56,342 nt of DNA, filler included, from Catajapyx aquilonaris (GCA_000934665.2; 2 parts of 2 records of this genome joined end to end with filler, not necessarily neighbours in it); one strand, 5' to 3'. Shown: positions 15,921 to 56,342, numbered from the whole stretch's first letter. A program made the numbers and translations. The notes: generated from the letters alone by a model not told the origin.

Positions 15921-15961
15921 TAAGTAGTGGTATGTGAGATTTTATGTACTATGACCCAAAC

Positions 15962-30018: not shown

Positions 30019-30353
30019 AAAAAACAATCATATATATCAGATATTAGATGCGTATTGGTCGGCGTTTTTGGGTCACGTAAGAAGCCAGGTTATTATGAAT
30101 TGCGCCGTTGTTTACTATCCGCGCGCCACCTAACAAGTAAATGGTCCGCTCGCTAGTGCCGACCGACTGACGTGTCTGAGTGCGCCTGTTCTACTTCTAT
30201 GGAGTATGGACCCCCTCTAGATTGCTTTCCGGACACAGGTTCCCATGGGAAAAATGTTTGTCTTGGTCCCCTCTATGACCTCTAGAAGTTTGTCCGTTGA
30301 ATTCATTTATTCCCTGTATGTGTAGTATGCTGACATTTCTGATATGCCTGCAG

Positions 30354-32102
30354 GTTGTGCAGAGTGAAGATGGGACGGAAATTCCCAGTGCCCGCATTCT
30401 GGCAGCTTATGCTCAAAGAGCTGCAGAACCCTTGGTACTCATGATAGTGCCTGTGGGCGGGACATGGTTGCCACTAAATGCCACAAGTGACAAGTCTTCC
30501 AGGACCTTATGTGATGAATGTAAACTTATTGTACATATTTTGGTGGCTGGTTGAAGTTTTCTCCATGTGAAACTGATGATTTCCTTTCCAGTAGCAGGAA
30601 GTTCCTCTGATCAAGTCGGTCAATCTCCAAGTGTGGCAGGCAATAATGCGTCCAAGACTGGCCCACGACATCAATTGGAAGGAGGTTGTGCCAGTTGACT
30701 TCCAAAATGATAATAAAAACTCTATTGCAAGTGAGTTGCAATTCATCAAGGGAGTGGCAGATTACCTGAAATTTCAGCGCCACGACTTCAGTCGTAAGAC
30801 AGCCATGTCCATGGCTCAGGAAATGGTCAAGAGGTACCCAAAACCATTCGAAATGGTCACATGGGATGTAAAAGATGATAAAACTCAGATATACTCCGAT
30901 GGCGTGTGCGCTCTAGGCGCTCGACTGTACGAGCGCCTGAAATAAATAAAGCCAAGCGGTTTGAAGCGCAAGAGAACAAACAGCCGCCAAGGTAGTGATG
31001 AAGAGGAGGAACAACTGTCCAGGTACGGGAATGAGCTGGATTCCCATGGGTGCGTGGCATGGGAACCACTGCTTCCGGGATCAGAATCCCAAGAATCCCA
31101 AGCCAAAAAAAAAAGGACAAGCTTGCTGCTGACTACAGCATTGGAGAGCTGAGTAGGAGGGAAGTGGTTGGTCTTCTGGCTGACACCTATCCGTCCCAAA
31201 GGCTCGTTATTAATAAAAGAGAAAGAAAACTGGCGGACATCCTGCAGCAATGGCCACATCTACAGGACACGGACCATTTCCTGCACTTTGGTCGGAAAGA
31301 ACGTCAGGGAAACATGGAATGATAACCTCACGAGGAAGGCGAAGGGGATATTTACATATTTTTCATCCCATGCCGAGAAGAAACGTGGCAAGATGCAGGG
31401 CAGCACAGCTAGGACGGAGGTAGATGTTGCAATGCAGGCATGCATAACTCTCATAAGTGAGGTGCCAAGAGTGCTGGCCATGTTTCCGTTGCTGGCCTTG
31501 TACTTTGAAGAGGAGGCAATATTCACCATGACTAAGTGCTGCCTGTCCAGCAGTTTTCATATTCAGCAAATGACAGTATTTCACATGCTTTTCCTTCCAC
31601 AGGATGCTGCTGCCGGTGAGGGCTTCGTACAGGATGCCGTCGGCAAGTCAGAGAGGCCAGTCCTGATCATCAAAGGTAAATTCAGTAGACTATATTTGAA
31701 GTAGTTATTAGTGAAACAATGTTTATAAAATGAGTACACTCACATTCTTCCTATTGCTTCTAGGCATGTCCTTATATGATGAGGGAAGCACCTGCGTGAT
31801 GGGCTGCGATCACCAGGTCATGTTTTCTGGCAACGGTGTGCAAGATGCCATACTACTTTATTTCATGGCATATTATGTCTATGGCTACAGCTACCCACCA
31901 CAGCAGGCACACACTCTCGAGTTCATTCAAAGGTAGGAGTAGGATTAAGGCCTATCTCGACCACCGAGACTCATTGATGACGGTGCAGAAATTGATCAGT
32001 TCACGTTGAATTTATTGCCTCAATCACAGTGTTCTTCATCGCTATCGATGCCAAGTACAGCAGAGAGGAAACCTGAAGAGCAGTGCACAGGGTGTCAAAA
32101 AG
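30354..32102 (+). pseudogene. Intron-containing SAMD3-like (CACTA-associated accessory) gene, disrupted
   Basis: Peptides MAQEMVKRYPKPF, DSHGCVAWEP, DTYPSQRLVIN, QWPHL and MAYYVYGYSYP..TLEFIQR followed by a GT donor. Several frameshifts. Confidence 0.7.
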
Positions 32103-32219
32103 GTATGAGACAATTTTGCACTTCTGCTTTCGCTTTAGCCTACTAACTGAAACTACCATGCCTCTTCTGCACCAGTCCTTAATCATCGCAGATCAAAGCG
32201 TAATGGTATCCCACATTTC

Positions 32220-32262
32220 TTAACCCATAAGTAGTGTCATGGGGTCTTTTTTTGACCCCAGG
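32220..32262. mobile_element. Possible piggyBac-type terminus
   Basis: TTAA followed by CCC..., then a GGGGTC(T)nGACCCC subterminal palindrome. No partner end seen. Confidence 0.45.
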
Positions 32263-32938
32263 TGGTTATTTAATTATATTTAATCTCCATTTCGTGTGAT
32301 TAAATTTTGAATGTCATTAAAAATAAGTTCACATAAATCTTAATGCGTAAATAATAAAACAGACTGATAAAAAATGTGATTGAGTATTTAAAACTGCAAA
32401 CACAATTCAATGAGTATAATATATTATAGATAGCTCATCAACAACCTGCAGCGTTAAAAATTCCTAAATACACATACTATGTAGACGGTCTCAAATGGAG
32501 AACATACTCCCTACCGGTCTTCATTAATTCAAATTCTCTTACAGCCATCCGTCTTCTGGAAGAGGCGAAGGAAGAAAGGCACTTGCAAACGGATTTGTTG
32601 AAGATGGTATTAGAATCGAGGAGAGAGGAACCCGCCACCTCTCCTGATCCCAAGAAGCTTCCCGCCAGTGGGCGCCAGACGCAGCCAGAGGCTCCAGTTT
32701 GCGTATTTCTGTGGGATGGGCTCAATAAAAAGATCGCTCAGTCTTGAATCTTGGAGGAGTCTATATTTTCATTTTTATTTTATTTACTAGCAGCGGAGCC
32801 TCACACAATATTATAGTCGTTGGTTGCGTATGCGTTGTGTGAAAGTTATAGGCGTATGAAATTACTGCATGCCTATATGGTGCTTTTGTCGGGATTCCCA
32901 TAAAACCCTGCGATTGGCAGTGGTTTCAGGCAAAGAGT

Positions 32939-33066
32939 ATGTATGATGCGGTCTGTGAAATCTCACAATCGACTTCAGATGTAGGGTTGAAGCCCGAAGC
33001 TCACTGTCTAGCTGAGAAGCTGTTAGATTTTAAGTTTTTGGCCTCACTTGGTACCTGGTATGATAT
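32939..33066 (+). pseudogene. hAT transposase internal fragment
   Basis: EAHCLAEKLLDFKFLASLGTWYDI resembles a conserved block in ZMYM1-like hAT transposases. Confidence 0.65.
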
Positions 33067-33404: not shown

Positions 33405-33722
33405 ATATCTGGTGCGCGGAATTTGCTGTGATTTTTTTTTGTCCATGTTGCCTGATTTCATGTGTAGGCTACTTTAATTTTTTGCGTAAGATGTATCATT
33501 CTGAAAATTTTGAAATAAATCTACAAGTGATCCCAACACTGTTTACAAGCGTAATACGTGGAATTATTAATTGAAAATTAAAAAATTAAAAATCGTAAAA
33601 TGCAGAAGTTGGTACCTCTGCACTTCCGTGCAGCACCATGGTGCTAGAGTGTATTGTGAGTGAAAATTGCCTTTCGGTTCGGTATCCTACATTCCTGCTA
33701 GTATCTAACGTTGCTGGTCACA

Positions 33723-34481
33723 ATGGCTGACCGCAGTGGTCGAAAAAAGAGAGCAAGTGGGTTTCAATACAGAAAAAATAAAATTGACAGAGAAGCTAAA
33801 CACGAGGAGCTTCTCGCAAAAATTCCGAAAATTGGCGTTTTTTTCTCTCTCTCTGCAAGCAGCCAAGCTGTGACTCCATCAAGCAGTGCCACTCACTGCG
33901 AGGACTCCTCAAACAGTCCCGAAGCAGGGAAAGCAGCTGAGACAAAAAGTGATGAGACCGCGCCGATCACAGAATTGAAGGGTGCAACTGCCCCAATGCA
34001 GAGCAGCAAGACTAATGTTGGTGATGACATAGTGAAGAATATACAGCAGGAAACTCTACTGTACGGAGGCAGTGGAGAGAATCTGAGCGACATGACGGAC
34101 ATCGCAGGCGTGGCTGACATCTTAAGTAAAGATCCAGCAGATTGGAAAATTTATGAAGAGACGCGAGATTGGGTTGCCGTGAATGGGGAGTGTCAAAATG
34201 CTGACGAGGACTTTAAAAACACAAAAAGGCAGTACACTGATCGCACACGATATTTGTCTAAGGATCTTTTCAAACGGACATTGAAAAATGGGGAAGTGAA
34301 GGTTAGGTCGTGGCTGGTGTATTCCCCCAAGAGAGGAGACATTGTCTGTGCACCGTGCACGTTTTTTTGGGCATAAGACATCTTCATTTACCACAGGTTT
34401 CAGTGATTGGAAGAACGGAAAAGCACGTGTCGAACAGCATGAAAATTCCCCTGAGCACAAGACATCCGTAGCTGACCTTAA
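33723..34481 (+). pseudogene. hAT (ZMYM1-like, TTF zinc finger) transposase, 5' half
   Basis: SGFQYRK N-terminus, RSWLVYSP..CAPCTFF, and GFSDWKN..HENSPEH after a frameshift. Continues in frame at 42313. Confidence 0.85.
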
Positions 34482-34742
34482 AGGGACACTCCACTCAAAA
34501 TACAAGTTGGCCCCCAAAAATCGGGCAAAAAATCCTGATTCCGAATGTGCAATAGGTTTTTTGCTACGCCCAACGGTAACACGGAATATCATATATCTAC
34601 ACACGTCGTCTGCTAAGAAGGGCGATACAACAGCATCTAGGCAAGCCGGAGAAGTAGAGGAGGTGATCAACAAGCAACTACCGCGCGAGGCGCGCTAGGC
34701 AACACAAGCGCGCCAGCTTCGAGCGCTTTCGAGCCGAACCTG

Positions 34743-35540
34743 ATGAGAAGGATGGCGGACCACAGAAAGGTCGGGTGTGTAAGTGCACCCGATGTTTCGG
34801 AGGCCGGCACAGGGAGAGTCCATCCCGGCGCCCTCGCACCTCCCCTGCGGCCCTACCAGTGCGAGCCGTATGACGACGACGGGGTGGCCACATATGAGGC
34901 AGAGGCACTTGCAGCACGTCATGTGTACACTGCAACTTACCACGACGACGACGACGAGGAGGAGGAGGAGGAGGAGGCGGAGGGGGAAGTAGAGCAAGAA
35001 GTGGGCAATGCCGAAGCTGCCACAACAGCAGGTCCACAATCCCATCCCCGACGACCTGTTGAGGAATGGTGCCAGTGTGGCAATTATGCTGCAATGAAGA
35101 GGCAGGAGGAGGAAGTCAATAACAGGTACACCCATATACATGTACTTCTTGAAATGCTAAAATGCACCCTAACTTCCAGATACATGTATGGCATATCACC
35201 CCGAGTTTCTCAGCCTCTGTCTGGACAAAACTGCTATCCAGATGGCAAGTATGACAGACAGAAAATTTCGGAAACTCCAACCTTTGCGCATAACTTCAGA
35301 TGAGAAGTGAGTAAGAATTACATGTATGCCTAACTAATGTATTGCATTGTGACAAATTCACACAGGTGTGCAATGTTTCATTTAGGGAATGCCGACATTA
35401 TGCATACCGCCAGTTCACCACCTGGCGGCATGACTACCTCGGGAAAGGGGAAAGGCGGGTCATACCCTAGGGAGCACTTCCCAGACCCCAGGAATGTTTA
35501 CACCGGGTTCAAGAGGGCCAGAGAGGAAGACAATATATGA
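34743..35540 (+). pseudogene. P2X7 C-terminal ('ballast'/Zcd)-like Kolobok accessory gene (KolX-like)
   Basis: Exon 1: LRPYQCEP, an acidic tract, then EEWCQCGNYAAM. Last exon after the AG at 35384-35385: YAYRQFTTWRHDYLGKGERRVIP [frameshifting deletion] REHFPDPRNVYTGFK. Confidence 0.8.
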
Positions 35541-35709
35541 TAACAAGAACCCCCAAAAATATTCCATTACACACAATACACACTATACACAACTTGTATG
35601 TGATGCAATGCAATACACAGATATGCAGTTATCGACACGCAAAGTGGATGCTGGAATCACCAAAGAAGGCCAACAGGGGTATGAACATGTGAAAGTAACA
35701 TTAAAATTG

Positions 35710-35893
35710 CTACCTCTGAAAGCGACTGTACCTAGTCTTCATGACCTCCTCGAGGGATGGCTTTGGAACAGGGGCAATATTACAGGGAATGTCGGGGAAT
35801 GAAGGGTGGGGATATTCTGGATCGTGATGAATGATTTCTTCAACGAGATCACTCCTGAACTTCTTTGATATTGGCTCATAAACAGCTTTCGCC
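35710..35893 (-). pseudogene. Kolobok transposase C-terminal remnant
   Basis: ...IPCNIAPVPKPSLEEVMKTRYSRFQR*, convergent with the P2X7-like gene inside the TIRs. Confidence 0.6.
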
Positions 35894-36505
35894 GTACCTG
35901 GGCATACTTTTCTGCCCCCCGATAGGGCATTTGGGGTGATTGAGAAATCCATAAGGAAAATGGAATCAATCGTGTCACCGGAAGAGTACAACAACATCGC
36001 ATCTGCAACGAGCACTGTCCACAAGCTGAAAGAGGATCCCGGTGATGACGAAGGTGCGTGGTGTATACATGATAGGAAGGGCGTAGCTGACAAAGTAGCA
36101 AAGAAACCTTTGCCATGGAAAATCACCCACTGCAAGAGATTTTTTATTGAACGCAGTTCAGGATGCAAAGGAGTGCTCATCGGTGCGGAGGAAAATTACA
36201 GGAGCATGCTGTCTAACAGGAGGTCATCCATACTTCGGAAAGGGTATAGGTGGGACAGGATAGATGCTCCTGGGAAAAAACTTTCCAACATGTTGAGCAG
36301 ACAGAAGAAGGCAGACATTGACATGCTCCTAGGCAAGCATTTTGGTGCCTCTTGGAGAGACATGGAATCTCTAAGCTACTACAAGAAAGCCCTGAATGGT
36401 CAGGATTCAGAGAAAATGGACGAGACTACTGGCGTACATGAGGAAGACTTGGACGAGACTTATGGATGTGGTTGCATCATCGATCGTACATCCCAAGTGG
36501 TATAA
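35894..36505 (+). pseudogene. Sola1-like transposase C-terminal fragment
   Basis: PGHTFLPPDRAFGVIEKSIRKMESIVSPEEY ... KKADIDMLLGKHFGASW. Confidence 0.65.
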
Positions 36506-37240
36506 AGGTTTCTTTGCTAATGCCTCATGGTTTTTGTGTGTATGTATGCAGAAGTAAAGGCTTTTTTCCATGTCAGAAAACTGTATGTAAAGTTGGAAAT
36601 AAATCAATGTATATTGCCTATTCATGTCTTACATATTGCAGTTATCATTATGGGGACAATAACATAGCCTTATAGTTGCATTATCAAACATGGCTATCTT
36701 CAATGTGTTTTATTTAATTATCACTGTAAAAGTCAACTGTGATCGAAATCCTTCTTGGTGGTCTTTGTGACGGTTATCTTGATTACCTAGGAATTTTTGT
36801 AGGTGTGGAATATGGTTCCTGCAATGATTAGAGAAAAATGGCTCTACTGAAAAGTTGAGCCTGTTGAAGATAGCCATGTTTGAAACGCCACGACTCAAAT
36901 GCAAGAGGAAATCTTCACATGCAGATCAGAACAAGTCGGGCAATAAGAAGACCAAGGAACAAAAGAACAGCACAGACAGGACGAAGCTGAACAAAACCCA
37001 ACCAACGGCGATTCAAGTTGACCTAAATGAAGAGAGAAGAACACTGACAAGGGAAGTGTCTGTAGGGCCATCGGCCAATCGGCCCGAAAATGACACTAGG
37101 GGTAAATCGCAGGCCAGAAATTCATTGGTGAAAGTAAAAAGTTGCATTAGCCAAGCGTTTTCGAGATATGGGCGACTATAGGTGCCCGGCAAACCTGCTC
37201 GGTGACAATAGGGCGCATTCGGCAGAAGAAATTATAAACA

Positions 37241-37323
37241 GTCTTCGTGGCTCAGTCGGTAGCGCGTCCGCCTCATGATCCGAAGTCTCCACGTTCAAGT
37301 CCGCGGGAAGCGACTTTTTTTTT
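37241..37323 (+). ncRNA. tRNA-like (Pol III A/B box) unit in the left foldback arm
   Basis: GTGGCTCAGTCGGTAGCGCG..CTCATGA..GTTCAAGTCC followed by a T9 run. Acceptor stem imperfect. Confidence 0.55.
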
Positions 37324-38019
37324 CCCTCTCCCTCTCTCGTCTCGGAGCATCGTTTTCTTTTTCTTTCTTCCCCAACACAGTTTATCACCGCATATCTTCC
37401 CTTTTGCAATCAACAGGAATAAATAAACAGCTTGCTGGGAAGTGCATTACTTTTTTTTTCTCCTTCTTCTACCGAGCCGATGCTTACCGACTTCCGCGCA
37501 CCCCAAAATCCCCCACCGCCACCCCACCCCCTCGAAAATGCCCCACTCAAATGCATTTTCAAGGGGGGTGGGGTGGCGTTGGGGGATTTTGGGGTGTTGG
37601 GAAAAACCCACCAGCTCTCTTTTAGCTTCTGGTCAGACAATACTTTCGAACTGTTCCTTTTCTGCAGGAGAGGAACAGAAGAGCAGGATATTCGACCACC
37701 TGGGACTCGATATTCGATATTTTCGACCACTTGCATACAAGGCATACACCTGCACCAAGGCGTTTTTTTTTTTTACTACAGGCTCTGTCACCAAATGTAA
37801 ATCGAAAAAAATCCGTCACTCCGACAGTTGGCTCTCAACGCGGCCCTTACGAGGAAGTCGGTAAGCATCGGCTCGGTAGAAGAAGAAGAAAAAAAAGTAA
37901 TGCACTTCCCAGCAAGCTGTTTATTTATTCCTGTTGATTGCAAAAGGGAAGATATGCGGTGATAAACGGTGTCGGGGAAGAAAGAAAAAGAAAACGATGC
38001 TCCGAGACGAGAGAGGGGG

Positions 38020-38101
38020 AAAAAAAAGTCGCTTCCCACGGACTTGAACGTGGAGACTTCGGATCACGAGGCGGACGCGCTACCGACTGAGCCACGAAGA
38101 C
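38020..38101 (-). ncRNA. tRNA-like unit in the right foldback arm
   Basis: Reverse-complement copy of the left unit. The anticodon-loop position reads CGT instead of CAT. Confidence 0.5.
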
Positions 38102-38854
38102 TGTTTATAATTTCTTCTGCCGAATGCGCCCCATTGTCACCGAGCAGGTTTGCCGGGCACCTATAGTCGCCCATATCTCGAAAACGCTTGGCTAATGCAA
38201 CTTTTTACTTTCACCAATGAATTTCTGGCCTGCGATTTACCCCTAGTGTCATTTTCGGGCCGATTGGCCGATGGCCCTACAGACACTTCCCTTGTGAGTG
38301 CCATGCTGAATAGGTGGATTAAAGAACAACCTTTCCTTAAAGATGTATCTGCAGCATGCACCAAGAAAGGAACAAAGGGATTGTTTGAGGTAGAAGTATC
38401 TCCAGGCACCTCCCCAGGCACAGGGAAGATTACAGAAGATGGTGTTCAGACGAGAGTTCAGAATTGCACAGCAAATGTAAGCTGTTTCTGTTCCGCCAAA
38501 CTCAAGCTAACTAAAAAGAATGATGGAAATTGGATAACGTCGAATTACACTATGTAACACACTTTTTGTGTTTGGCAAGTGAGTGTTATGTCCTGCTTTC
38601 TTATGCCTAAAAACTTGAGATAATGGCCATTATACCTGCCAAAGTTTGCCTTTGTGCTCAGGAGAATGACTTATATATTTTGCATATCCCCATATACGTA
38701 CTTGGGTAACAAATTTCAATTTTTATAAACAGACAACATCTAGATCAAAAGTAATGTTTATTTCTACTTCAAAACAAAGACAATATTTAGAAATGTGTGG
38801 TTTTTCTAGATTTACGATTGTACTGCAATCACTTTCCCGAATTAGTCCCCATAT

Positions 38855-40439: not shown

Positions 40440-41869
40440 ATGCGCGGGACTGACAGATCCGACAGATCAAATAGCACCGCTCTCTGTCAGTCTCGCGAAA
40501 GGTTGTCCAAAATATGTGTAAGCAGCGGGGTGAAAAAAAGTCAGAGCGAAAGTTCTTCCACACCTACAACTACAGAAATGAGAGTAACAGTGAATAACAA
40601 TTTCGGCGATGACAAAAGTAAGTGGAAAACGAAGAAGTACAGCCGCAGTGAAAGAAAAAAACGCACGTTGTTGCGTAGTGCAAAAGGTTGCACGACAATC
40701 ACAGCGTACTTTCCATTGCTAAACGAAATGGAAAGACTAATGAAACAAAACAGGGAACTGCAAGAAACCCTGGAGTCCGTGATGAGGACGCATGATAACA
40801 CACAGCACGCTGACAGTCCAAAAACTTCCACATTCCTTTCTCAATTAACTTCTCATGCATTAAAAAATACCCAGAAAGGAACAGGGGCACGGTACGAAAG
40901 GGCCGTAACGTTATTTGCGACTTATTTATTTCTACTTGGAGGAAGAATGCTGTACGACACTCTGTATGCGAACTTATACCTGCGTCTTTACCCAGAACAC
41001 GTACCGTACTAAGGAACTTAAGTATCAGCAAGGACCACACCCACACAGTATGTGAAGGTATGTACAGACTGAAAGAGTTGCACACCTTTCTTACTGAGAG
41101 AGGACTTCCAATGCTTGTGTGCGTGAGTGAGGACGCAACCCGCATATCTGGACGTGTACAGTACGATTCATCTTCAAATCAACTGGTAGGATTTGTTCTG
41201 CCATTAGATGACAATGGCAACCCAGTTCCTCGTAGCTTTACTGCTAATTCAGCCAGTGACATTGAGAGGATGTTCATGACAGAGTCAGTTTCATCATTAG
41301 CGTACGCAATCATGGCAAAACCGTTACAAAATGGGGCTCCGTCATTTTGCCTAAATCTATTTGGAAGTGACAACAAATTTACGGCGGAGCAGGTTGAAAA
41401 AAGATGGCAGCAATTGGAGAGAGCAGCACTAACATTTGGAATAAGAATAATGTGCTTTTCCTCAGATGGAGATCCTCGGCTACTCAAGACAATGCGAGGG
41501 AAGGCAAGATTAGTTCCATCAAGAGTTCCATCAACCAGTGATTCACAGCAGGATTCGTCGCAGGTACTACAACCCGAGCTACAACCGCAGCCACAACTTG
41601 TACCTGAACTCTGGCAGGGATGGTATTTTATTCCTCGTGACCCTGGCGCGGTGTACCCACAGGAGCGAGAACATGAGCCTTCATGCATACAGGATTCGGT
41701 GCACATTGGTACCAAACTAAGGGCGAGACTGCTAAAACCTTCCATTTTGCTCCCTATAGGACACTGCGTAATTAGTGTCACTCATCTGAAAATGTTGAGG
41801 GAGAAAGTACCGAAGACACTGCATTGTCTTACGGAAAGTGATCTTCAGCCAAAAGACAAAATGAACTGA
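40440..41869 (+). pseudogene. Divergent P-element-superfamily-like transposase, 3'-truncated; probable 5' exons at 36884-37041 and 38301-38555
   Basis: YLFLLGGRMLYDTLYANL, VSEDATRISGRVQYD..NQLVGFVLPLD, FSSDGDPRLL and QDSVHIGTKLRARLL (D..D..DxxH pattern). Confidence 0.7.
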
Positions 41870-45121: not shown

Positions 45122-46822
45122 GGATGACATGAAAATTAAGCAGCAGGTGGAGTTTGATGGGAAAAAAGTTGTGAGATATATAGATCATGGCACAGGCATT
45201 GTGGATGATGACAGCTTCCCTGAAGCTACCAGTGTCTGTGTGTTAGTGTGAGATTTCAGGTGCCCATTGGCTATTTTCTAATTAACAGTTTAACAAGTTC
45301 AGAGAGAGCTGCTTTGGTAAAAACTGCCCTGACTAAACTGCATGAGAGTGGTGTGGAGGTATTGTCCTTAGTGTTCGATGGGACATCTAGCAATGTTGCT
45401 ACCGCTAATGTTTTGGGCCAACATCACCGGTGAAATTGACAAGCTTCGAACATTGTTTTGTCATCCGGTTGACGAAGCTAAGAAGGTGCATGTCATGTTG
45501 GATGTGTGCCATATGCTAAAGCTGGTCAGAAATGCGGTTGCTGAAAAGGGTCATTTGAAAGACAGCAATGGGTCAGATATTTCATGGGAGCATAACAAAG
45601 CTCTCCATAAATTGCAGGGAGATGAGGGCTTACACCTGGCAAATAAGTCGCGAAAATGTCACATGGAGTGGGAGAAGCTTTAGATGAACAGTTTATTTGA
45701 CCTCTTGAATTCCAGACATAGGCTACTTTCGGGAAGAACTTCAAAGTACCTATTAAGTGTGAAAATGAGTCATTATGGAGTCCATTTTTTAGGAAGGCTG
45801 AAGCGTATTTGAGGAATTTAATAGTCAGTGGGACAGGACAACATGTGTGTGAATCTCGTAGGAAGACAGGGTTTTTGAGATTGATTGTTGCTATGCGTAG
45901 TTTGGAGTCAATCTTCAGAAATGTGATGTTGCCAAGCAATACATCTCTGAAATACTTATTGACATACAAGTTGTCGCAGGATCACCTTGAAATATTCTTT
46001 GGCTGCATCAGGGCAAGAGGAGGCTGGAACAATAATCCCACAGTCCGCCAGTTTCAAGGTTCTTACAAGCGATTGCTGGTCAAAAATGAAGTCCAAATGT
46101 CAAGGGCAGGGAACTGCTTGCAGTTTGATGACGTGAGAATTTTACATGTTCCAAGCAGCCTGACTAGCAATAGGGCAAGGGATGATTATGATCCCATGGA
46201 TCTGGCAAAAGCCTTACAGGACCATGATTATGACCTTTATCATGACATTTCATCCCTGAGCCATTATGCCCAGACAGTTGTGCCATATATAGCAGGGTTT
46301 GTAGTGAAAAAGGTGTGTGGTATTGTTGTTAGATGCAGTGATTGTGCCAAAGCAATCATTGCAAACCAGTATGATCTAGGCACACAATCATTATCAGGTG
46401 ATCAGATTCCCATAAGTGTGGACAGGTCAAGTTACAACGTCTCTCTCATTGAAAAGAAAAACCAGGGTGGTTTGGTGTTTCCGTCTGCTGATGCCATCTC
46501 AGTGTGCAAGCTCACAGAACTGTACTTGAGGGCAGAGCTCAATAAGACGGATCCAAATTTGGCCACATTTGCAAGGTTAGCATTTCAAATCAGCACAAAA
46601 GTTTTGCACCACGTTTTATCCTTCAATTTGTTTGCCTGTTTGACTGATCATGTAGAAACCCTGGGTCCAGAGGAAAATCATGTGGCCTTGTTAACCAAGC
46701 TCTTGGTGGTCAAGTATGTGCGAGTTCGTATCCATCATGTGGTGAAGCATAAGAATTCATCATTCTCACGAAAGAGTTCTAGGTCGCAATTGAACCGACT
46801 TATTATTAACCAAAATTTGTGA
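45122..46822 (+). pseudogene. P-element/THAP9-like transposase, 5'-truncated and frameshifted
   Basis: DDMKIKQQVEFDG, VPIGYFLI, VFDGTSSN, LDVCHMLKLVRN, GLHLANK and YLLTYKLSQDHLEIFFGCIRARGGWNNNPT. Confidence 0.92.
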
Positions 46823-48021
46823 GGAATAAAATCATTCCCTTCAAATTATTGATTATTATTGATCAATAATTTGAAGGGAATAATTTTAAGGAGTGACAAC
46901 AGAGAACTAGGTCTCTGTTGTCACTCCACTGGATGAAAAAATCGTTTGTGTGTGATCTAGTTCTCAGGCTATTATATTGGGACCCGACTGAAGCATCAAG
47001 GGCTACATGTATGATTCTCAATAATATTATGTTGTTTTCTTGCCATAATAAATCATGTCTCTGAAAAATCCGTGGAAATACATTCCCTTCTTGTTGTCTC
47101 CAACACCTTCATTTTAGGCATTTCAGTGTTCGATCATTGCCTGAGGACCAGTTTCTCCCCATGTTTGTAATAAGACTATACTGGAGCCTGGAAATGGGGA
47201 TGCGGTCTGATCTAACCTTTTAAAGTCCTATACAGCCCATTTCTTGCCATTTATTCAAATTAAACGAATATCCACATACATATAAAGCCAACTGGAGCCT
47301 ACACTGGAGACTGAGTGTCATGTTACTTGACCAGCTTGACCACCAGGAGCTGCCAAGTACACTAATAAGTTATCATGAATTAGATGTGCTGACAAGGCAA
47401 GCAGAAGGCAGTTTCATCGTTTCATTCCTCTCCCAATATGGCCGCCAGCGGGGCCTAACGCCGGCGTCATGCGTTTGCATTGCAGGGGTACCTCAGGGCC
47501 CCTCCAGATTCTTCAACCTCCTTGCTGGTTGCTAGCTGGGGAATTGTGAAAGGTATTGCTGCGCCATCTTTCGTCCTACTAGTGAACACTATGGTCTTGT
47601 AATCTGGCACAGAAGCACATGCTGTTTCGCACTGCCTACTCCTGATGTGAGATACCTGCCAGCAACATCTGAGCGAGTTTTTCCGGTAAGTTTCCATCAC
47701 CCAGTGTCCCTACTACACAGTTGTGGTGGCATTCAACAGTATTATATGTATGTGCAGTATGAGTGATGGAAGTGGGTAATCATTGAATATGTGGCGGGGG
47801 CGGGTATGCACTTCCCCCCGGAAAATGTGCGGCTGGGGCAAGTGCACCTCTGCTGCTTGGGGTAAGTGCACTCATGATGTGCTCTTACCCCACATAATAA
47901 TTGAGTTCATTTTCTGTGTGAATGTTACATTTTACACTTACACTACATTTACTTGACATATTACACTCACTGGCACTAGCTTACTCTGAGCCTTCTGTGT
48001 TCCAAAGCAGCAAATGTCGAA

Positions 48022-48182
48022 ATGGGGGAGGACTTACACAAGAACATCACTACGAGGGACCAGCTGCACGACTGAAGCCCTTCAAAAGGCAGTGCAGGAA
48101 ATTCGAGCTGGCGTATTGACTGCTCCTAGAGCTGCCTTAATCTTCAACATTCCATTGAGCACCATACGAGACCATGTGAACC
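48022..48182 (+). pseudogene. pogo/Tigger N-terminal psq-type HTH fragment
   Basis: RTYTR..EALQKAVQEIRAGVLTAPRAALIFNIPLSTIRDHV (frame not in the ORF track; +1 G after the ATG). Confidence 0.7.
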
Positions 48183-48201
48183 TGCATTATTAGGTGATGA
48201 T

Positions 48202-50670
48202 ATGCAGGGTCTTATTGTGCCTATTGCTCCTGCTATGGTGGCCACTGTCATACAGGGTGATCCCATGTTTCACGACCCTCCTGTTCCCAGGGCTACACCC
48301 CATTCGGCCACACCTCAACCTACTATACATGCTACACCTCATGTCCCTACTCCAACTACTGCACAAGCTAGCGGTTTATTTTTATTGGATAGGGTAACTA
48401 CAGCCCTTACTAGTAAAAGGTTTTTGGGCATATTTGCTGATTTGAAGCCAACCGCACGCAAATGGAGCATTTTGATCGATGCCAGAGATGACGAGTTACG
48501 TGAGGTATGTCGACTTTGTGAAACGCAAAATCTCATCCCGCCTAGGGTTTCGGTGATGTTTCTGCATCTAACGGCATTATGGCCACGCCTACTTGAGCTG
48601 TTTCGTAATGATCACGGGGTACAACTGTTTGCAGAGCATGATAGGTTTCATACAGAGTCTAATTTTGCGTTCCTGTCAAAAGCCGGGGTAAATACTTGGC
48701 CTAAAGTGTCTACCAGTAATGGGGAGCATTCCAATGATAGGACTTGGGGTCACGTGGCGCAATACAAAAATAAGAAGAAGGGCAAAGGAAAAAATTGTTA
48801 AGTTGGGAAAGTGCGAGTACATTTACTTCAGTTGTGAATTACATTCATGATTTAAAAGAACAGTTTGGTTTTGTCTTGCAAGCTTTAAGGATCCCTAACC
48901 TAACAGAGGTGTTAAAGATGGTCCAAGGTAAGGGGGATACAGTATTGAGCTTGCAACCTACACGCTGGTTCCGAGTACAGGTGAGCTGTACAGCTAATCT
49001 ATCATCTACTGTCATTTCACCACAAGTTTTTAGTTTGTTACAAAAAGGGAGTAATTTTTTACCCCCCGCCTATCTTACCACAGAAAATTTTCAAGTATGT
49101 TTGTCACATCTAGAACATAATGTAGCCCTTGATTTAGATCGTTTGTATGGTCCTTTGGCTGGACCTCGATCTTTTAATCCTGGTTATGGATAATAAGGCA
49201 ATATTTGCAAATATGGGTGTCAGTTCAGCTGCACAGAAGGTGCCCTGTCATTATCCCGAGTATGAAGCATTTCAGGGTTTAAAGCAGTTTGTAAGACAAT
49301 ATGCAGCTAATCCTACTAAACATAAAAGATCCCTGCATAGGCAACTTTCACACAATGATCAGGAAGCGTTGCAGTGGCTACGTACAGAGAACACACTGAT
49401 CTTAAAACGTGCGGATAAAGGGTTTGGTTTCTGCTTCATGCCTAAGGAATTGTACATTAGCAAGATGCTACAACATTTAAGTGGCCCAAATTATTTTTAT
49501 GTTGGTTTTCTGGGCGATTTGGATCAAGACCTGTTGACATTCACAAAAGTCTGTTATGATAACATGCTTGAGCTGTTGCCTTTCTTACGCTCACACATTT
49601 TGAAAAACTTCTTATTGGTAAACAGATTTTTGGAAACTGATCATTATCAGATTCCTTTAATTTATGGTATTCCCAAATTGCATAAATTGGCAACTAACTT
49701 ACCTGAAGACATTGTTTTAAGGCCTATTATCCAAGGAATGCATTCGGTTGTGAGTCATGTTAGTGCAGTTCTGGTATTCATACTTCGGCCACTTATGCAT
49801 TTTGTAGACTACCAATTATTTAATCCAGATGATCTTATTTTAATTTGCAGGCAGGATTATGCAGTTCCTTCCCATTACATACTTAGCACATTGGATGTGT
49901 GTAACATGTATCCAACAATTGATTTAATGTTACTGCGCAAGGTTCTAAGAAATTTCTTTATTACGTTTAAACACTTTTCAAATGTTAGCAATTCCGTCCC
50001 CACATGGGTTTTCATGGAACTGTTAGAATTAGTCCTTGCAGCTAGCTTATTTCGCTTTGGTGAAAAGGTGCATGTGTGACCTTTGTTTTTTTCATGTACA
50101 TATCAACTTCATGTTTGCATCATCCTTCATTCTCCTCTACACCTCTTGTGAAGTAGTCCTATCCAACCCACAGTGCTTTGCGGCTTCCCCTACCTATATA
50201 AGTCCGTTACACCTTCCATTCGAGGCCTTTTCTCTTTGGGAGAGTATCCCTAGAGAACTGGCCGCCCCACCTCAACCTCTCACCTCACCTTTTTCGCATC
50301 ATCAATATTACTGAATGTATATATTCCATCGGTCATTAAAAGAGGTATAGAACGAACCCCTGGTGTTTTGTGTCATTCCCTGTCGATGACGATTCGGGTG
50401 ACACATGCACAACAACAAGGTGTACCTATGGGTAACGCGTTATTCCCCAGGCTTGCCATTATCTTCATGAATTCTTTTGAAATTGAGTTTGTGCGACTAC
50501 ATAGACAGGATATTTATCATTACCAGAGATATATTGATGGTGTTTTTCTCGTTGCCTCGCCTGAAATTGTGGCGTCTTATGTAACACAAGTTCCACTTGG
50601 CACAGGATTGCAAATAGTTGTACAAAAGCAAGGCGATACAGTTAATTTTTTAGATTACCATTTCTTTCTG
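48202..50670 (+). mobile_element. Penelope-like retroelement RT, copy A (disrupted)
   Basis: NLSS..LLQKGSNFLP, KRADKG, IYGIPKLHK, LRPII, TLDVCNMYPTID, QQQGVPMGN and RYIDG. Confidence 0.85.
50075..50403. mobile_element. Solo LTR in the Penelope RT
   Basis: TGTGAC...GTGACA with a CATG TSD (50071-50074, 50404-50407). Removal restores EKVHAQQQGVPMG. Confidence 0.85.
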
Positions 50671-51337
50671 GGGGGGGCTAGGAGGCCAAACGCCTGGAAT
50701 CGGCCGGGCTCCTCAACTCGTTTGAGGCTGATACGCTCATTCCAATGCCCAACCTGGGCTTGGTACAAATAATTTACGGGTTACCCAAAACACAAGTCAG
50801 ACCTTCGCCCAGGGAATTCGCTATCAGACCCATAGTCACCGGGTTTGCCAGCCCCAAAGCCGGCATCAACCGACTGTTGACCTACCTCCTCTCCCCTCTG
50901 GTTCCGAGGATCAGTGAACGTCTATTTAACCCTGACCACCTCGCCTACTTACTCGGCCAGAAGGATGGGGTCCCTCCGGAGTATCGGATCCATACTCTTG
51001 ATGTAGAGTCCATGTACCCTTCTATGGATCATACCATACTCCGCGATACTGTCTTATCTTTCTACCGTGAATTTCACCAAACCCAGCCGCAAACAGCCCG
51101 TTTTCCGGCGGATGTGGTGGCCGAACTCCTAGATATATTCTTCTCCGCTGGGTTTTTCTGGTTCGGCAACCGCCTGTACCGGCAGGTGCAAGGGGTGGAG
51201 ATGGGTTCCAGTTGCAGTCCTCTGTTAGCCGACATCTTCCTATACGACCTGGACCGCTCATTTCGAGCTGACATGGGCCCAAAGGTCCACACCTTCATAC
51301 GCTATTTGGACGACGTCCTCTTGATCTGTGAGCCTGG
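50671..51337 (+). mobile_element. Penelope-like RT core, copy B (different family)
   Basis: IYGLPK, IRPIV, TLDVESMYPS, YRQVQGVEMGSSCSPLLADIFL and RYLDDVL. Confidence 0.85.
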
Positions 51338-52365
51338 CACAGTGCAAGTTTTTGAAGCCCCGTCCTGTACCGTTCGGGTTGAAGCCGTTAGTGGACGTTG
51401 AGCTGGATCGGATGGTGGAGGATGGCTCTATCACCCCAGTGACACACACTGACTGGGCCACTCCTGTAGTGGTGGTCAGGAAACCGGGTGGGAAAATCCG
51501 CCTTTGTGGGCATTACCGGGTGACTGTCAACCCTGCATGTGTTCCAGACACACACCCTCTTCCGACCACGCGCGAGCTTCTTGCCAACATCTCAGGGGGT
51601 ACGGTGTTTGCCAAGCTGGACATGGCGTCGGCGTATCGCCAGCTGGAGGTTGATGAGGCATCAGCTGTTGTGCAGACTATCACCACGCACCGGGGCCTGT
51701 TTCGAGTAAATCGTTTGGCGTATGGCGTCACATCCGCTCCGGGCATCTTCCAGAGGTTTATGGAAACATTGCTAGTCGGCATTCCCGGCTTGGGGATTTA
51801 CCAAGATGATGTGATCGTGGCTGCTGGACAGACGTGTGCACATGGTACTACAGCGCCTGAATGAGTCGGGTTTGCGCCTGCAAGGACAGAAGTGCCAGTT
51901 TCGCCTGCCTCAAGTGACCTTCCTTGGGTACACCGTGGATGCGGAAGGAGTGCACCCAACCATGGACAAGGTGTTAGCAGTTAAAATGCCCCAGCTCCCA
52001 CCAACAAACTGGAATTACAATCCTTCCTTGGTCTCCTGAACTTTTATGCCATTTTCCTGCCTAACCGTTCCACAGTCCTGGAGCCCCTCCATGAACTGCT
52101 CCGCTCTGGTACGCCTTGGGTATGGGGTGACCGTCAGGCACGTGCTTTCCTGGCGGCTAAGGATTTCCTGCAGTCGGACCAGTTGTTGGTCCATTACAGC
52201 CGGGACCTGCCATTGGTTCTGAGCTGTGATGCCTCTCCGTATGGCTTGGGGTATGTGCTGTCCCATGTCATCGCCGGGAAGGAGCAACCCATTGCTTATG
52301 GTTCACGTACGCTGACTGCACCAGAGAAGAATTTGTCGCAGTTGGATAAGGAGGGTTTGGCCATT
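51338..52365 (+). mobile_element. Gypsy (Mag-like) LTR retrotransposon RT-RNase H fragment
   Basis: PRPVPF, WATPVVVVRK, AKLDMASAY, LAYGVTSAPGIFQ, YQDDVIV and CDASPYGLG..IAYGSRTL..SQLDKEGLAI. Frameshifted. Confidence 0.92.
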
Positions 52366-52479
52366 TTCTCTGGTGCAGTCAGCGTACGTGAACCATAAGC
52401 AATGGGTTGCTCCTTCCCGGCGATGACATGGGACAGCACATACCCCAAGCCATACGGAGAGGCATCACAGCTCAGAACC
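52215..52479. repeat. 114-bp inverted duplication of Gypsy RNase H sequence
   Basis: 52366-52479 is the reverse complement of 52215-52328, with a 37-bp loop. Confidence 0.9.
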
Positions 52480-53870
52480 CCTGTCAGAAATTATTGCATC
52501 ACCTGTACATTTTGCACATTTTCCCTTGTAACTTTTGAATTTCCCACTTATTCCCAACTCTGAGTGATAGTATCGATTACGTGGATTATGAGGATCATTT
52601 TAAGCAGGTATCGGTCGCGGTAATTTTTAAAGGGATAGTGGGTCATAGTATTGTATGTCGGTGTGCACCTGTTGACCCAGCCACTACCATCAGCACCATG
52701 GGGAAAACGGCGGAATTTTCGCCCAGAAAGAAGGGAATAATTATTGCTTTGCACAAAGAAGGTTTCAGTGGAAGAAAGATTGCTTCAAGGGTGGGGTGCA
52801 ACCAAAGTTCTGTGTGCCGGTTGCTAAAACGGTTCCAAGAAAGTGGTTCAGTGGAGAGGGTGCCTTGTCGTGGAAGAAAGAAGACGACAACATCAAAAGA
52901 ATACAGAATTTTGAAGAGAATCTGTTTGGGAAATAGGAGGAAATCTTCACGGGACATCACTTCCGACTTTTTCGACCAAACCAGCATCAAACTGGGCACC
53001 AGCACCGTGAGACACCGCCTCATCAACATGGGCCTTCCAGCACGCCGGGCACAGAAGAAGCCGTTGCTGACTGCGCCGAAGTCGCCTGAGGTGGGCCAAG
53101 ATGCCCCGCAACTGGACTGAGGAACAGTGGAAGCAAGTGATCTTCTCTGACGAGGCACGCTTCAGCTTGAATGGGCCGGACGGGGTGCAGGACGTCAGGC
53201 GTCGCTCATCTGAGAAGTTTCACCGTGACTGCATGGCCCTGACTGTGAAGCACTCGCAGTCAGTCATGATTTGGGGGTGCATAACTGGAAGAGGAGTTGG
53301 CCGGCTACATATTTGCACCGGCATGATGAATCATGTCCAGTATTTGGAGGTGCTGGAGAAGAAAATGATCCCAACAATGAAGGATCACTTTGGGGGAGTT
53401 CGGGACGCAATCTTCCAAGATGATTCTGCCCCATGTCATCGTGCAAAGAAGGTGTGTTATTGCTCAAATTCAACCGTTATTTCGTTCTGAACATAACAAA
53501 ACAGAATTGTAGGTCATGTTTACGCTTCTTTGGGTTCAGGTGAAGGATTTCCTTGCACGAAAAAGGATCAAGACCTTGCCGTGGCCTGGAAACAGCCCGG
53601 ATTTGAATCCCATAGAAAATGTGTGGAGCCAACTGGGGAAGTATGTTATGAAGAAGCCACCGAAGAACCCTTTGCAGTTGAAGGAGAGGATTGTCCGTGC
53701 CTGGTTTCATGAAGTACACAATCTTTTGGTGGATAAACTTATTTCTTCCATGCCACGACGTTGCCTTGCAGTTATTCGTGCAAGAGGTGGCAATACCAAA
53801 TATTAGTTAGCAAGACATTGTTGGCACAAATATATGCTACCTAAAAAACACAGAGTAGTTATTTAATAAA
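52480..53870 (+). mobile_element. Tc1 (DD34E) transposon with an intron-containing transposase (ATG 52698, stop 53806), one frameshift
   Basis: Paired-like HTH, KKPLL, FSDE, FQDDSAPCH and WPGNSPDLNPIENVW. GT-AG intron 53452-53539; splicing gives 34 residues between D and E. Partial TIR-like CCTGTCAGAAATTATTGCATCACC. Confidence 0.9.
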
Positions 53871-54488
53871 TATAGTTTAAATATCTAAGCAGACGTCAAT
53901 GTCAACGGTGAGTGTTTCAGCAATAGTCGTTAATTATATTTCATTTTTATAAATATACTAGAGCCAGAGACACTCGAGAAACTGGAAGACTCGCCACTCG
54001 AGGGGCTCGGGGACTCATCACTAGAGGCCTCGAGCCGGAGGCACTGACACGGTTACGGTTGTGGTGGTGTACGTGTGATTGTACCTGCTGTGCTGAGGAC
54101 AGAATTAAAGGACCATTCAGAAAGCAACCTCCCTTCTCTGATAGTTATTGCTCGGAGAGTGCCCCCCCCCCCCCNCCCCCCCCCCCCCCCCGACCCGTTG
54201 TGGCACGGGCACCTTACCTACGTCTCCGCGACCAACCCTGTCCAACCACCCCCTATCCCAACCATCCCCAACCTTATCCCACCTTCCCCCCATTTGTCAC
54301 GTTACATATGCTGACCCAGACCACGACCGAAAGAGCCGCCCTTCTAGCCCACCTTCCGGGTGATCAAGGGTCCGTGCAGAAATGGACCGCTACCGCCGTG
54401 ACACAGCCGGGCGGTATGTTGAGAACCAGAGGGGACATGACCCGGGCAAGCAGTCTAAATGCCGCTTCCCAAAACGCCACAACCGAGC

Positions 54489-54700
54489 AAGCTTAGGCCA
54501 GGAAAAGGGACAGTTTTGTAGTTTTCCCAACGGGACAAGCGGTGAAACTCGAAATGGAGCAGTTTTACACCATTGGGCGCTTCCCAGGAGTCGTGGGTAT
54601 CATGGATGGGACCCACATCAAAATTAAAAGCCCTGGTGGTCCATTTGCCCAGATGTACATCAACAGGAAGGGCTGCATGTCCTTAAATGTACAGGTATTT
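54489..54700 (+). pseudogene. Second fragment of the same Harbinger nuclease family as at 28.3 kb
   Basis: Near-identical nucleotide stretch encoding GRFPGVVGIMDGTHIKIKSPGGPFAQMYINRKG. Confidence 0.9.
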
Positions 54701-55047
54701 AATCTGCAGTGAAGTGTATCAGTTGCCAGACATAACCAGCAACTGACATGTCAGAACTACTTTCATGCATGTGCAGGATTACTTTGCTGAATTTCTGGAA
54801 TAAAACAGAATGTTGGGATGCAAACCGTTGACAAATGAAGCTCCCCTGGCACATTCTTTTCACAGAACTCCGCCCGGGTCGGCCGAGGGACCGATCCGTG
54901 GCACCGCCATTAGCCCACAAGAGCCCTGCCTCTGCAGGTATACGCCCACAGACACTCAGCCGGGGCTTTACCTCGGGAGCCAGTCCTGGTAGTCAACCGG
55001 CTTGTCTGAAATAAACCTAACCTTCTGGGTGGAATATCCAATAGACA

Positions 55048-55115
55048 CATCCACCCGGGGAAGTTCTCAAAATGACCTGCACTTTGCACATCCCCTCCTG
55101 TCATCCCGCCCGTGG
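55048..55115 (+). repeat. Fragment related to the SINE body at ~43990-44070
   Basis: CCACCCGGGGAAGTTCTCAAAATGACC..TGCACTTTGCACATCCCCTCCT shared with the SINE. Confidence 0.65.
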
Positions 55116-55659
55116 GCCCGGGCGTTTCGTAAAATGGTTTCAAAAATGTAACAACTTGAATACAGGACTCGTCCCCCTATGCCGGTCAATGACCTCCTCT
55201 ACCACCTTCCCCCTCCTAGTTGGCCACTTCCTGTTTCTCCCCCCTTCTAACTCCCCTTGCTTTGCTTCTTGTGCCCTTGTCCCAACCGATGACCCCTGCT
55301 GTGGAGACCCTATATAATGAGGGGGAAGATGGAGAGCAGGGTCTTCGCTGGACTTCCTCTTCACCACACTGACCTCTCTACCTTCCCCCTTTCTTTGCCT
55401 CTGTTGTATCTTTGTTTGTGTTAATACAGAAGTTAGTATAGACTCGGTGGTACATTATTCCCCCTACTCCCTACGTACCGCCATACCCCAAGACTTGAAA
55501 GAATTGCGCATGCGTTTCCCAGGCATAAAGGCTGTGCTGATGCCCGCAAGGGCACTAACCCACAATGATTTAAAAAAACAAAAAACTGACGGTACCGTTC
55601 GATAGGGCTTACAATGTACCGCCACCTAATTGGAATAATTGAAAAAGAACCCAGTGACA

Positions 55660-56342
55660 ACGAAGAAGTGATCGTCTAGCTGATGCTCTCAGAAGCACCA
55701 GACGACATATGGCATGGTGTACAATGTGTTAGGCCCAGCACCCAAGAAAAAGAAGCGCGATGTTTACGGCTGCCTTCAGTGGCACCCTAGATCATTGTCA
55801 TCCGAGATCACTGATCTTCAATATGAAATGAAGGAGGAGTTGAAGATAGTGTTTTCAAATGGGAATGGGGATGCGAATGTCCTGGATGTAATGCAGAAGA
55901 CCTTTGACATCCAGCGAAAGGAAATCACAGCAGGCATGGCCATACCCCTACTTAAGAACGAATGGCCATACCTCTTTAAAGCGAAGTACATGCAGCAACA
56001 CTTCGAAAGCATGTTGGGGTTCAATCCTCCGGATCATTTTAACAGAGAGCTGCTTGCACAAGGCCCTCTGATATCAAAAGTTTTGCAAGCTTCAGGAAAT
56101 GAAAATGCTGAACCACACCTTATGAGTTGCATATCCCTGGCTTCAAAATACTTCAACGAAGACCTTGCTAACATATGCTGCATGCATGGGGTTTGTACTG
56201 GAAGTGTTTTATGTTGATATGTAGTATTAATGACAGCATTATTTTGAAACAGGGACCTGTGAGTACATCGAAAGAAAAGAGGGAGCTCATCCTTGTTGAT
56301 TGGTGCCGGTAGTTTAATAATTATTATGTCAATCCCCCCCAC
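55660..56342 (+). pseudogene. Second SAMD3-like (CACTA-associated) gene fragment
   Basis: DVYGCLQWHP, QKTFDIQRKEI, EWPYLF..HFESMLG, paralogous to 30.9-31.3 kb. Runs off the window edge. Confidence 0.7.

Follow-up and report, generated by a model that had tools for sequence, protein, structure and literature searches.

Analysis of the window, a stretch of 56,342 nucleotides of Catajapyx aquilonaris (GCA_000934665.2), revealed that the region from 30.6 to 56.3 kb is closely packed with broken genes of unrelated mobile elements, with a bias to the + strand (Table 1). All supported coding and SINE remnants in this region lie on the + strand, and the listed fragments cover about 57% of 26,143 bases. 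Ten of these fragments are firm (two copies of an unnamed protein family, an integrase core, a tRNA-type SINE, a P/THAP9-like transposase, a pogo-type HTH, two related reverse transcriptases, a Gypsy RT-RNase H piece and a Tc1 transposase), and they are drawn from at least eight unrelated families. The region is densely built of nested, shortened transposon remnants, with the SINE lying inside the integrase and a TIR-bounded insert inside a hAT-like copy. As an earlier description made from the sequence (hereafter the preliminary description) had claimed, none of the elements is intact; the second P-like transposase is broken into four frame pieces and the Tc1 transposase into three.

Table 1. 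Features of the array and of its left flank, with positions counted from the first base of the window.
Feature	Position	Strand	Basis or remark
Harbinger-like transposase piece (weak)	28315..28892	-	DDE_Tnp_4 E 0.014, below cut-off
Two consecutive ORFs, 100 and 170 aa	29327..30089	-	Pfam: no match
Unnamed-family copy 1, decayed	30670..31933	+	tblastn 7e-38
hAT-like (ZMYM1-like) transposase, N-terminal part	33702..34486	+	ORFs; tentative label
7.85-kb insert with inverted terminal repeats, adjoining TTAA	34472..42318	.	Splits hAT-like copy
P2RX7_C-like fragment (weak)	34641..35467	+	Two colinear weak Pfam matches
207-aa ORF, probably the earlier 'KolX-like' (lead)	35882..36502	+	Atlas 0.95
Foldback-type repeat, inverted arms of about 457 nt	37042..38300	.	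Arms 97-98% complementary
P/THAP9-like transposase 1, 351-aa ORF (lead)	40814..41866	+	Atlas 0.94
hAT-like copy, continuation past insert	42332..42739	+	ORF; tentative label
Integrase-core (rva_4) transposase fragment	43607..44543	+	Pfam; split by SINE
tRNA-type SINE, B-box-like head, (AATA)n tail	43845..44185	+	Sequence reading
P/THAP9-like transposase 2, four frame pieces	45066..46819	+	Pfam TNP-like
pogo-type HTH_psq fragment	47990..48190	+	Pfam 6.6e-7
Reverse transcriptase (RT) fragment A	49138..50769	+	Likeness to RT B; RVT_1 weak, 0.12
RT fragment B, adjoining A and Gypsy	50682..51345	+	RVT_1 1.1e-7 (50682-51398)
Gypsy-type RT and RNase H internal fragment	51345..52395	+	Pfam
122-nt palindrome (98%) at broken end of Gypsy piece	52207..52487	.	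Arms 52207-52328 and 52366-52487
Tc1-type transposase, three frame pieces	52539..53803	+	Pfam
Harbinger-type DDE start (weak)	54440..54709	+	DDE_Tnp_4 7.9e-4 (54497-54709), below Pfam cut-off
SINE-body-related piece, oriented as full SINE	55027..55099	+	Two direct matches to 43993-44059
Unnamed-family copy 2, decayed	55735..56166	+	tblastn 1.6e-10

Using the first copy of the unnamed family as a query, 11 phmmer matches were obtained (best 5.4e-7), and 10 of the 11 (P0002 dropped) were used for the tblastn search back to the window. No family-defining Pfam domain was found among these relatives, and their only source name is 'hypothetical protein'. The family had been labelled 'SAMD3-like' and given two copies; the family is real and two copies were mapped, but neither a SAM domain nor such a name was found.

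The two hAT-like pieces, whose hAT (ZMYM1-like) label is tentative and taken from motifs, gave no match in Pfam and PDB searches. They lie on either side of the insert, whose terminal repeats (34472-34532 against 42318-42258) are identical over 61 nt and agree at 94% over 71 nt. Beyond the insert the frame of the hAT-like copy picks up again, and the two pieces are probably one split copy rather than the two hAT elements counted before. Inside the insert there are three + fragments, which may be non-independent. The P2RX7_C-like fragment gave Pfam values of 0.037 (profile 53-100) and 0.0032 (profile 143-170). The 207-aa ORF scored against DUF7869-bearing Atlas clusters, with recognition below the guide value of the tool, and Pfam, PDB and word-index HMMER searches with it were negative, so that its 'KolX-like' label is left with the Atlas lead. 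Similarly, the first P-like ORF shared 208 features with TNP-like_RNaseH_N clusters in the Atlas and was modelled by AF2 at pLDDT 33, while Pfam and PDB searches gave no match. The foldback repeat has a summed contig depth in the thousands. A Sola fragment reported earlier was not located.

Of the element previously called IS3EU the integrase core was found, in two parts (43607-44014, 1.6e-10, profile 2-46; 44172-44543, 6.7e-8, profile 43-142), and the profile runs on exactly across the SINE, which splits the integrase cleanly. ARAGORN and Rfam made no call for this SINE, whose summed contig depth is about 79,000 compared with about 34 in ordinary bins. The second P-like transposase shows RNaseH_N (45066-45248, 2.5e-10; 45224-45430, 1.1e-18), GBD (45372-45680, 3.3e-14) and RNaseH_C (45722-46819, 9.1e-22) matches of the TNP-like type, and it was recovered as described, as were the pogo (HTH_psq), Gypsy and Tc1 fragments. 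The Gypsy piece consists of RVT_1 (51325-51861, 4e-11; 51815-52036, 3.1e-4) and RT_RNaseH_2 (51985-52395, 7.7e-23) and has no LTR, gag or integrase. In the Tc1 transposase, HTH_23 (1.8e-9) and HTH_Tnp_Tc3_2 (4.4e-9) were matched at 52539-53117 and DDE_3 at 53513-53803 (1.2e-7), with a weaker DDE_3 match (0.03) in the middle piece. The Harbinger piece was seen on the + strand as claimed, with a match too weak to pass the cut-off.

The two fragments formerly named Penelope A and B proved to be related reverse transcriptases; the ORF at 49138-50076 of fragment A has 33% identity (E-value = 2e-25) to the RVT_1-bearing ORF of fragment B, and its Penelope label is presumed from motifs. Direct abutment of elements also holds, with A and B overlapping at 50682-50769 and B meeting Gypsy at about 51345. 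Such composite blocks raise the question of whether the orientations reflect few real events, since the 7.85-kb insert and the tandem RT copies would offer fewer independent orientation choices than there are fragments: the perfect 61-nt TIRs enclose three + fragments, A and B are homologous and adjacent, and the hAT-like pieces probably count once. We consider this explanation improbable, because at least nine firm independent fragments of unrelated families still lie outside the insert when it is counted once, no nucleotide-level repeats link the fragments, and A and B share only a third of their residues (33%).

All ten firm fragments are on the + strand (P-value = 0.002, binomial test), and so are all six weaker ones, which are weak matches, leads or tentative labels (16/16 together, P-value = 3e-5). 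The strand-biased mosaic of unrelated broken elements in the preliminary description is thus borne out, and its binomial test of orientation comes out positive against a 50:50 null only. A Pfam scan that treated the two strands of 30.2-56.3 kb alike and took in all 349 stop-to-stop ORFs of at least 40 aa gave transposon-family matches for 14 of the 161 + ORFs and 1 of the 188 - ORFs (P-value = 2e-4, Fisher test). The sole minus-strand match, RT_RNaseH_2 at 52299-52490 (3.7e-9), is the inverted arm of the palindrome and a copy of the + Gypsy piece. Of the 18 minus-strand ORFs of at least 100 aa in the region, 15 overlap annotated + fragments and were read as shadows.

A neutral transposon graveyard, that is, a pile of old insertions in a region of low recombination, whose one-way layout arose by chance and was bound to turn up among many windows, is an unlikely explanation, though one with several points in its favour. 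The locus was picked from many windows (316 of this genome, some 250,000 overall), and the P-value of 0.002 for only ten firm fragments precedes this selection and is therefore not strong. Moreover, the fragments are old and mostly of ordinary depth, and the strand proposed for the precursor is no poorer in polyadenylation hexamers than the other (38 on -, 36 on +). Against chance stand the uniform orientation once the weaker fragments are included and the ORF-level test, which does not depend on the grouping of fragments.

To the left, the array ends sharply. None of the 258 ORFs in 1-30.2 kb has a transposon-family Pfam match or a convincing exon-like one, and short exons would escape such a search; the only two matches in this half, Chol_subst-bind and PLDc_2, are sub-threshold. 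One or two minus-strand pieces lie directly on the left flank. The Harbinger-like piece there, weakly supported at 28315-28659, is a 92% inverted nucleotide copy of 54488-54694, with 74-86% amino acid identity to the + copy, and two 44-N runs (28118-28217) stand just left of it. The two consecutive minus ORFs may be transposase-like, to judge from motifs, and are possibly what had been described as a minus-strand Kolobok transposase tail; no such tail was found within the array, these candidates falling just left of it.

Another explanation is selection by a host transcript unrelated to piRNAs. If the array lay in a long minus-strand intron, UTR or lncRNA, sense elements with splice or termination signals could have been purged and the antisense (+) copies left. 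We regard this as quite unlikely. The left-half ORFs contain no exon-like match beyond the two sub-threshold ones, in a search that short exons would escape. Intronic antisense bias is usually moderate, and at a 70:30 bias 10/10 has a probability of 0.03 and 16/16 one of 0.003. The bias itself is an established feature of mammalian introns, above all among LINEs and LTR elements, but in the parts of the source drawn on here DNA transposons were left out of the analysis (PMC3088655), and DNA-transposon pieces dominate the array.

Contigs put together from the reads, separately from the genome assembly, were compared over 36343-56342 (20 kb) at a likeness of at least 95%. Ordinary-depth contigs cover 39905-42087 (spanning the first P-like ORF), 47989-51430 and 51401-51961; the second of these, 3.4 kb long, bridges the RT A, RT B and Gypsy junctions. 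High-depth repeats break the contigs at 37.0-40.3, 41.7-42.3, 43.7-44.3 and 55.0-55.7 kb, the N runs at 28118-28217 are present, and a single sample, probably that used for the assembly, was the source of all four DNA runs. With key junctions bridged, and with the integrase profile continuous across the SINE and the hAT-like frame resuming past the insert as expected of true nested insertions, an assembly chimera of repeats is highly improbable. Most protein fragments, including the first P-like ORF and the RT A-to-Gypsy block, lie in ordinary-depth contigs (about 34 in X1), with higher depth at the Tc1 bins (83-280) and part of the second P-like transposase (about 116). For this reason, piRNAs may have few close relatives to act on, bearing in mind that depth is not copy number.

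Taken as a whole, the layout suggests that the stretch starting near 30.6 kb and reaching the window end or beyond is a store of old transposon remnants selected for their orientation, most likely a candidate one-strand piRNA source locus, a reading that we favour tentatively and at somewhat less than even probability. Unrelated elements inserted by ordinary means, as seen in the SINE with its tail, the TIR-bounded insert at TTAA and the nested insertions, and were then cut down by deletions, leaving remnants of which every orientable one points the same way. A long minus-strand transcript, with its 5' side past the right-hand end of the window (base 56342), would run antisense to every one of these remnants, and its processing could yield piRNAs against DNA transposons, RT elements and the SINE. 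Oppositely oriented insertions would be useless or harmful and hence not kept.

Among known systems, intronic antisense-biased transposons (Zhang et al., 2011, PMC3088655) share the orientation bias, which there stems from selection against sense-strand signals and, in the sections concerned, is described for LINEs and LTR elements with DNA transposons left out, while the array has no recognised host exons. Uni-strand piRNA clusters are common in mosquitoes, and their core clusters, as far as the excerpted account goes, depend on transcription that reads through from a gene upstream (bioRxiv 10.1101/2022.08.22.504762). Like the array, they have a uni-strand layout in a non-Drosophila arthropod, and their antisense cargo is non-retroviral endogenous viral elements; the mosquito clusters are defined by small-RNA data and the gene just upstream, whereas the array is known from DNA sequence and the upstream side of its candidate precursor lies outside the window (bioRxiv 10.1101/2022.08.22.504762). 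In Drosophila, flam-like clusters were discovered de novo via strand-biased transposon coverage and, in the portions of the study used here, have as their defining feature an excess of antisense Gypsy-family ERVs, over lengths of at least 100 kb (van Lopik et al., 2023, PMC10643416). The array, of which 26 kb is visible, shows no such enrichment, because DNA transposons and RT fragments take the place of Gypsy ERVs in its cargo: a single Gypsy RT-RNase H fragment occurs among at least 16, while pieces of DNA transposases and of RTs, together with a SINE, make up most of the cargo, which argues against flam-like membership and agrees with the contrast to flamenco drawn in the preliminary description. 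Two general marks of unistrand piRNA clusters are found in the array, which has in common with flamenco and the flam-like clusters (PMC10643416, in the same portions) dense nested shortened remnants and near-total co-orientation.

All stop-to-stop ORFs on both strands were listed and scanned against Pfam ORF by ORF (at least 40 aa in 30.2-56.3 kb, n = 349, 161 on the plus and 188 on the minus strand; at least 50 aa in 1-30.2 kb, n = 258), and 39 chosen ORFs were re-run with E up to 1. The scan revealed an unbroken run of transposon protein pieces in 43.6-54.7 kb, on the plus strand throughout, and almost no matches in 30-43 kb. Within the array (30.6-56.3 kb), all ten firmly supported fragments (two copies of an unnamed protein family, the integrase, the SINE, the P/THAP9-like transposase, the psq piece, the reverse transcriptase fragments RT A and RT B, Gypsy and Tc1) are on the plus strand (P-value = 0.002, binomial test against 50:50; 0.008 for the eight without the unnamed family). 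The six weaker fragments (P2RX7_C-like, DUF7869-like, the first P-like ORF, Harbinger, the SINE-related piece and the hAT-like copy) are all on the plus strand as well (P-value = 3e-5 for 16 of 16). At the ORF level, where no grouping is involved, transposon-family matches were found in 14 of 161 plus-strand ORFs vs. 1 of 188 minus-strand ORFs (P-value = 2e-4, Fisher test).

The preliminary description had nearly all fragments on the plus strand, which is borne out, with a Kolobok tail as the exception, which was not found within the array. The array's sole minus-strand Pfam match, RT_RNaseH_2 at 52299-52490, forms the second arm of a palindrome (98%) and represents a fold-back duplication rather than an insertion of its own; the palindrome resembles a scar of fold-back (hairpin) repair. 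Fifteen of the 18 minus-strand ORFs of at least 100 aa overlap plus-strand fragments and are thus read as antisense shadows. Searches beyond Pfam covered plus-strand ORFs, so minus-strand members of non-Pfam families could escape, but the ORF lengths argue against many such hidden members. We regard the layout as real. Chance alone is an unlikely source of it given these counts, although the choice of this stretch from many windows weakens the argument.

Features of the array and of its left edge
Feature	Position	Strand	Evidence and remarks
N runs	28118-28161, 28174-28217		Two of 44 N, immediately left of the array
Harbinger-like piece	28315-28659	-	Directly right of the N runs; 92% identical, inverted, to 54440-54694 (+)
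Unnamed family, two decayed copies	30670-31933, 55735-56166	+	Search with relatives
7.85-kb block	34472-42318		Between the hAT-like pieces; perfect 61-nt inverted terminal repeats, TTAA adjoining on both sides
P2RX7_C-like	34641-35467	+	Pfam, two colinear weak matches
Foldback-type element	37042-38300		Inside the block; ~457-nt arms, 97% complementary, smaller inner palindromes
Integrase core (rva_4), two halves	within 43.6-54.7 kb	+	Pfam
tRNA-type SINE	43845-44185	+	B-box-like head, (AATA)n tail
P/THAP9-like transposase	45066-46819	+	Pfam; four frame pieces: RNaseH_N, GTP-binding insertion, RNaseH_C
pogo-type HTH_psq	within 43.6-54.7 kb	+	Pfam
RT B reverse transcriptase	50682-51345	+	Pfam
Gypsy-type RT, then RT_RNaseH_2	51345-52395	+	Pfam
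Palindrome	52207-52487		122 nt, 98%, spacer of 37 nt; located precisely where the Gypsy RNase H fragment is truncated
Tc1 transposase	within 43.6-54.7 kb	+	Pfam; two HTH domains, then DDE_3
Harbinger DDE start, weak	within 43.6-54.7 kb	+	Pfam
Short SINE-related piece	55027-55099	as SINE	Sequence match

Word-index homologue searches with the ORFs at 31153-31701, 49138-50076 and 35882-36502 returned no relatives. A phmmer search with the ORF at 31153-31701 among 1.84 billion representatives yielded 11 weak relatives (best 5.4e-7). When ten of these (P0002 was dropped beforehand) were searched back against the window, two plus-strand copies were recovered (7e-38 and 1.6e-10), so that the two pieces previously called SAMD3-like are real copies of one family, while the name found no support. 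No Pfam domain defines this family, and its relatives are few (139-387 aa); among six looked up, the sole name was 'hypothetical protein' of a parasitoid wasp, the remainder being read-assembly proteins. Because the relatives are named 'hypothetical protein' at most, neither the SAMD3 name nor a transposon nature is established; the copies may stem from a transposon gene or from a multigene family of the host.

RT A (49138-50769) has an ORF, 49138-50076, with no Pfam match, yet with 33% identity to RT B (E 2e-25), which makes the two related, diverged reverse transcriptase fragments lying head to tail. Their N-terminal motifs are presumably Penelope-like, and no GIY-YIG domain was found with either. 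The two integrase halves cover successive profile positions (2-46 and 43-142), and reading of the sequence between them revealed a 340-bp plus-strand element, which is a clean SINE insertion. Its summed read-contig depth is ~79,000 vs. ~34 in ordinary bins. The Rfam gathering scan and ARAGORN made no calls, despite this tRNA-type SINE being visible by eye.

In 30-43 kb, two pieces had been labelled hAT. Pfam and PDB gave the label no support, it agrees with motifs in both pieces that we take to be hAT-like, and the most plausible reading of the pieces is a single copy interrupted by nested insertion of the 7.85-kb block. The block contains the foldback repeat, further high-depth repeats and the P2RX7_C-like, DUF7869-like and first P-like pieces; both of its ends are copies from a high-depth repeat family, and its interior near the P-like ORF has ordinary depth. 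The block may have arisen from a MITE that grew by subsequent insertions, or it may be a composite transposon. Composite insertions would make the fragments non-independent of one another, an account of the array that we consider quite improbable. Inside the block, the first P-like ORF (40814-41866) resembles TNP-like_RNaseH_N clusters (ESM Atlas score 0.94) and the ORF at 35882-36502 resembles DUF7869 clusters (0.95, low recognition); these identities are candidates, to be taken as leads only. Neither was supported by Pfam or PDB, the word-index search gave none for 35882-36502, alignment-free AlphaFold2 of 40814-41866 reached a mean pLDDT of 33, and comparison inside the window detected no similarity between the first P-like ORF and the P/THAP9-like transposase. 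PDB sequence searches with both ORFs, the hAT-like pieces and the PLDc_2 region gave nothing significant.

The left 30 kb had no transposon-family match in 258 ORFs. Its two Pfam matches, Chol_subst-bind (0.0029) and PLDc_2 at 247-450 (E 0.0016, no PDB support), were sub-threshold and treated as noise. Small MITE-like, self-complementary palindromes are dispersed over this otherwise featureless half (6945-7119, 15795-15921, 19486-19634 and 26675-26880). Owing to the N runs at 28118-28217, it is not joined to the array by continuous sequence. Minus-strand ORFs at 29327-30089, transposase-like by motifs as we assume, may be the Kolobok tail of the preliminary description. With minus-strand pieces at 28.3-30.1 kb and plus-strand pieces from 30.6 kb, the orientation changes at ~30.1-30.6 kb. 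The two Harbinger-like pieces, 26 kb apart and inverted, enclose most of the array, which continues past the window end on the right.

The sequencing runs listed for the stretch were four DNA runs of one sample and one more run of unstated kind that shares next to none of its sequence words; no RNA run was among them, a result that does not bear on expression. Logan contigs came from three DNA runs of one sample, probably the assembled one, and are not independent of the assembly; those of ordinary depth span 39905-42087, 47989-51430 and 51401-51961, bridging the RT A, RT B and Gypsy junctions, and contigs end at high-depth repeats. Mis-assembly as the source of the layout is very improbable in our judgement.

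Retro-capture of transposon mRNAs was rejected as the main route to co-orientation, since no A-runs were found after fragment ends and at least three elements carry ordinary insertion marks (a tail on the SINE, TIRs next to TTAA, host frames that are split cleanly). PolyA hexamers showed no strand asymmetry (36 on plus, 38 on minus). According to PMC3088655, intronic LINEs and LTR elements show antisense bias in mammals; selection by another host transcript is somewhat less probable here than chance. The best single explanation, which we hold tentatively and at not quite an even chance, is that the array is a candidate one-strand piRNA source locus. As a rule of thumb, targeting by piRNAs calls for copies with about 90% identity or higher.

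A bolder possibility, toward which we are more doubtful, is that a non-dipteran arthropod would have several master loci in the style of flamenco, with this array among them, and that this one would be specialised in cut-and-paste DNA transposons, Penelope-kind RT elements and SINEs in place of Gypsy retroviruses. The switch from minus (28.3-30.1 kb) to plus (30.6 kb on) would then be the precursor 3' end, and one-strand clusters selected for orientation would be ancient in arthropods instead of having arisen in Drosophila as a response to ERVs. If confirmed by small RNAs, the candidate piRNA source locus would be a unistrand cluster that was predicted from sequence in an animal other than Drosophila and mosquitoes and that carries mainly DNA transposon cargo, would back strand bias alone for finding such loci in poorly studied arthropods, and would bear on the age of orientation-selected clusters.

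Co-oriented arrays rich in TEs are a known kind, as are piRNA clusters of mixed cargo. In Drosophila, flam-like clusters were discovered de novo through strand-biased transposon coverage (PMC10643416), and uni-strand clusters are described as common in mosquitoes, often relying on upstream-gene readthrough, in bioRxiv 10.1101/2022.08.22.504762; the portion consulted of bioRxiv 10.1101/185694, on arthropod somatic piRNAs, holds no passage on clusters. Lacking Gypsy enrichment, the array is not classed as a flam-like cluster, and we place it as a candidate in the broader, known category of unistrand piRNA clusters.
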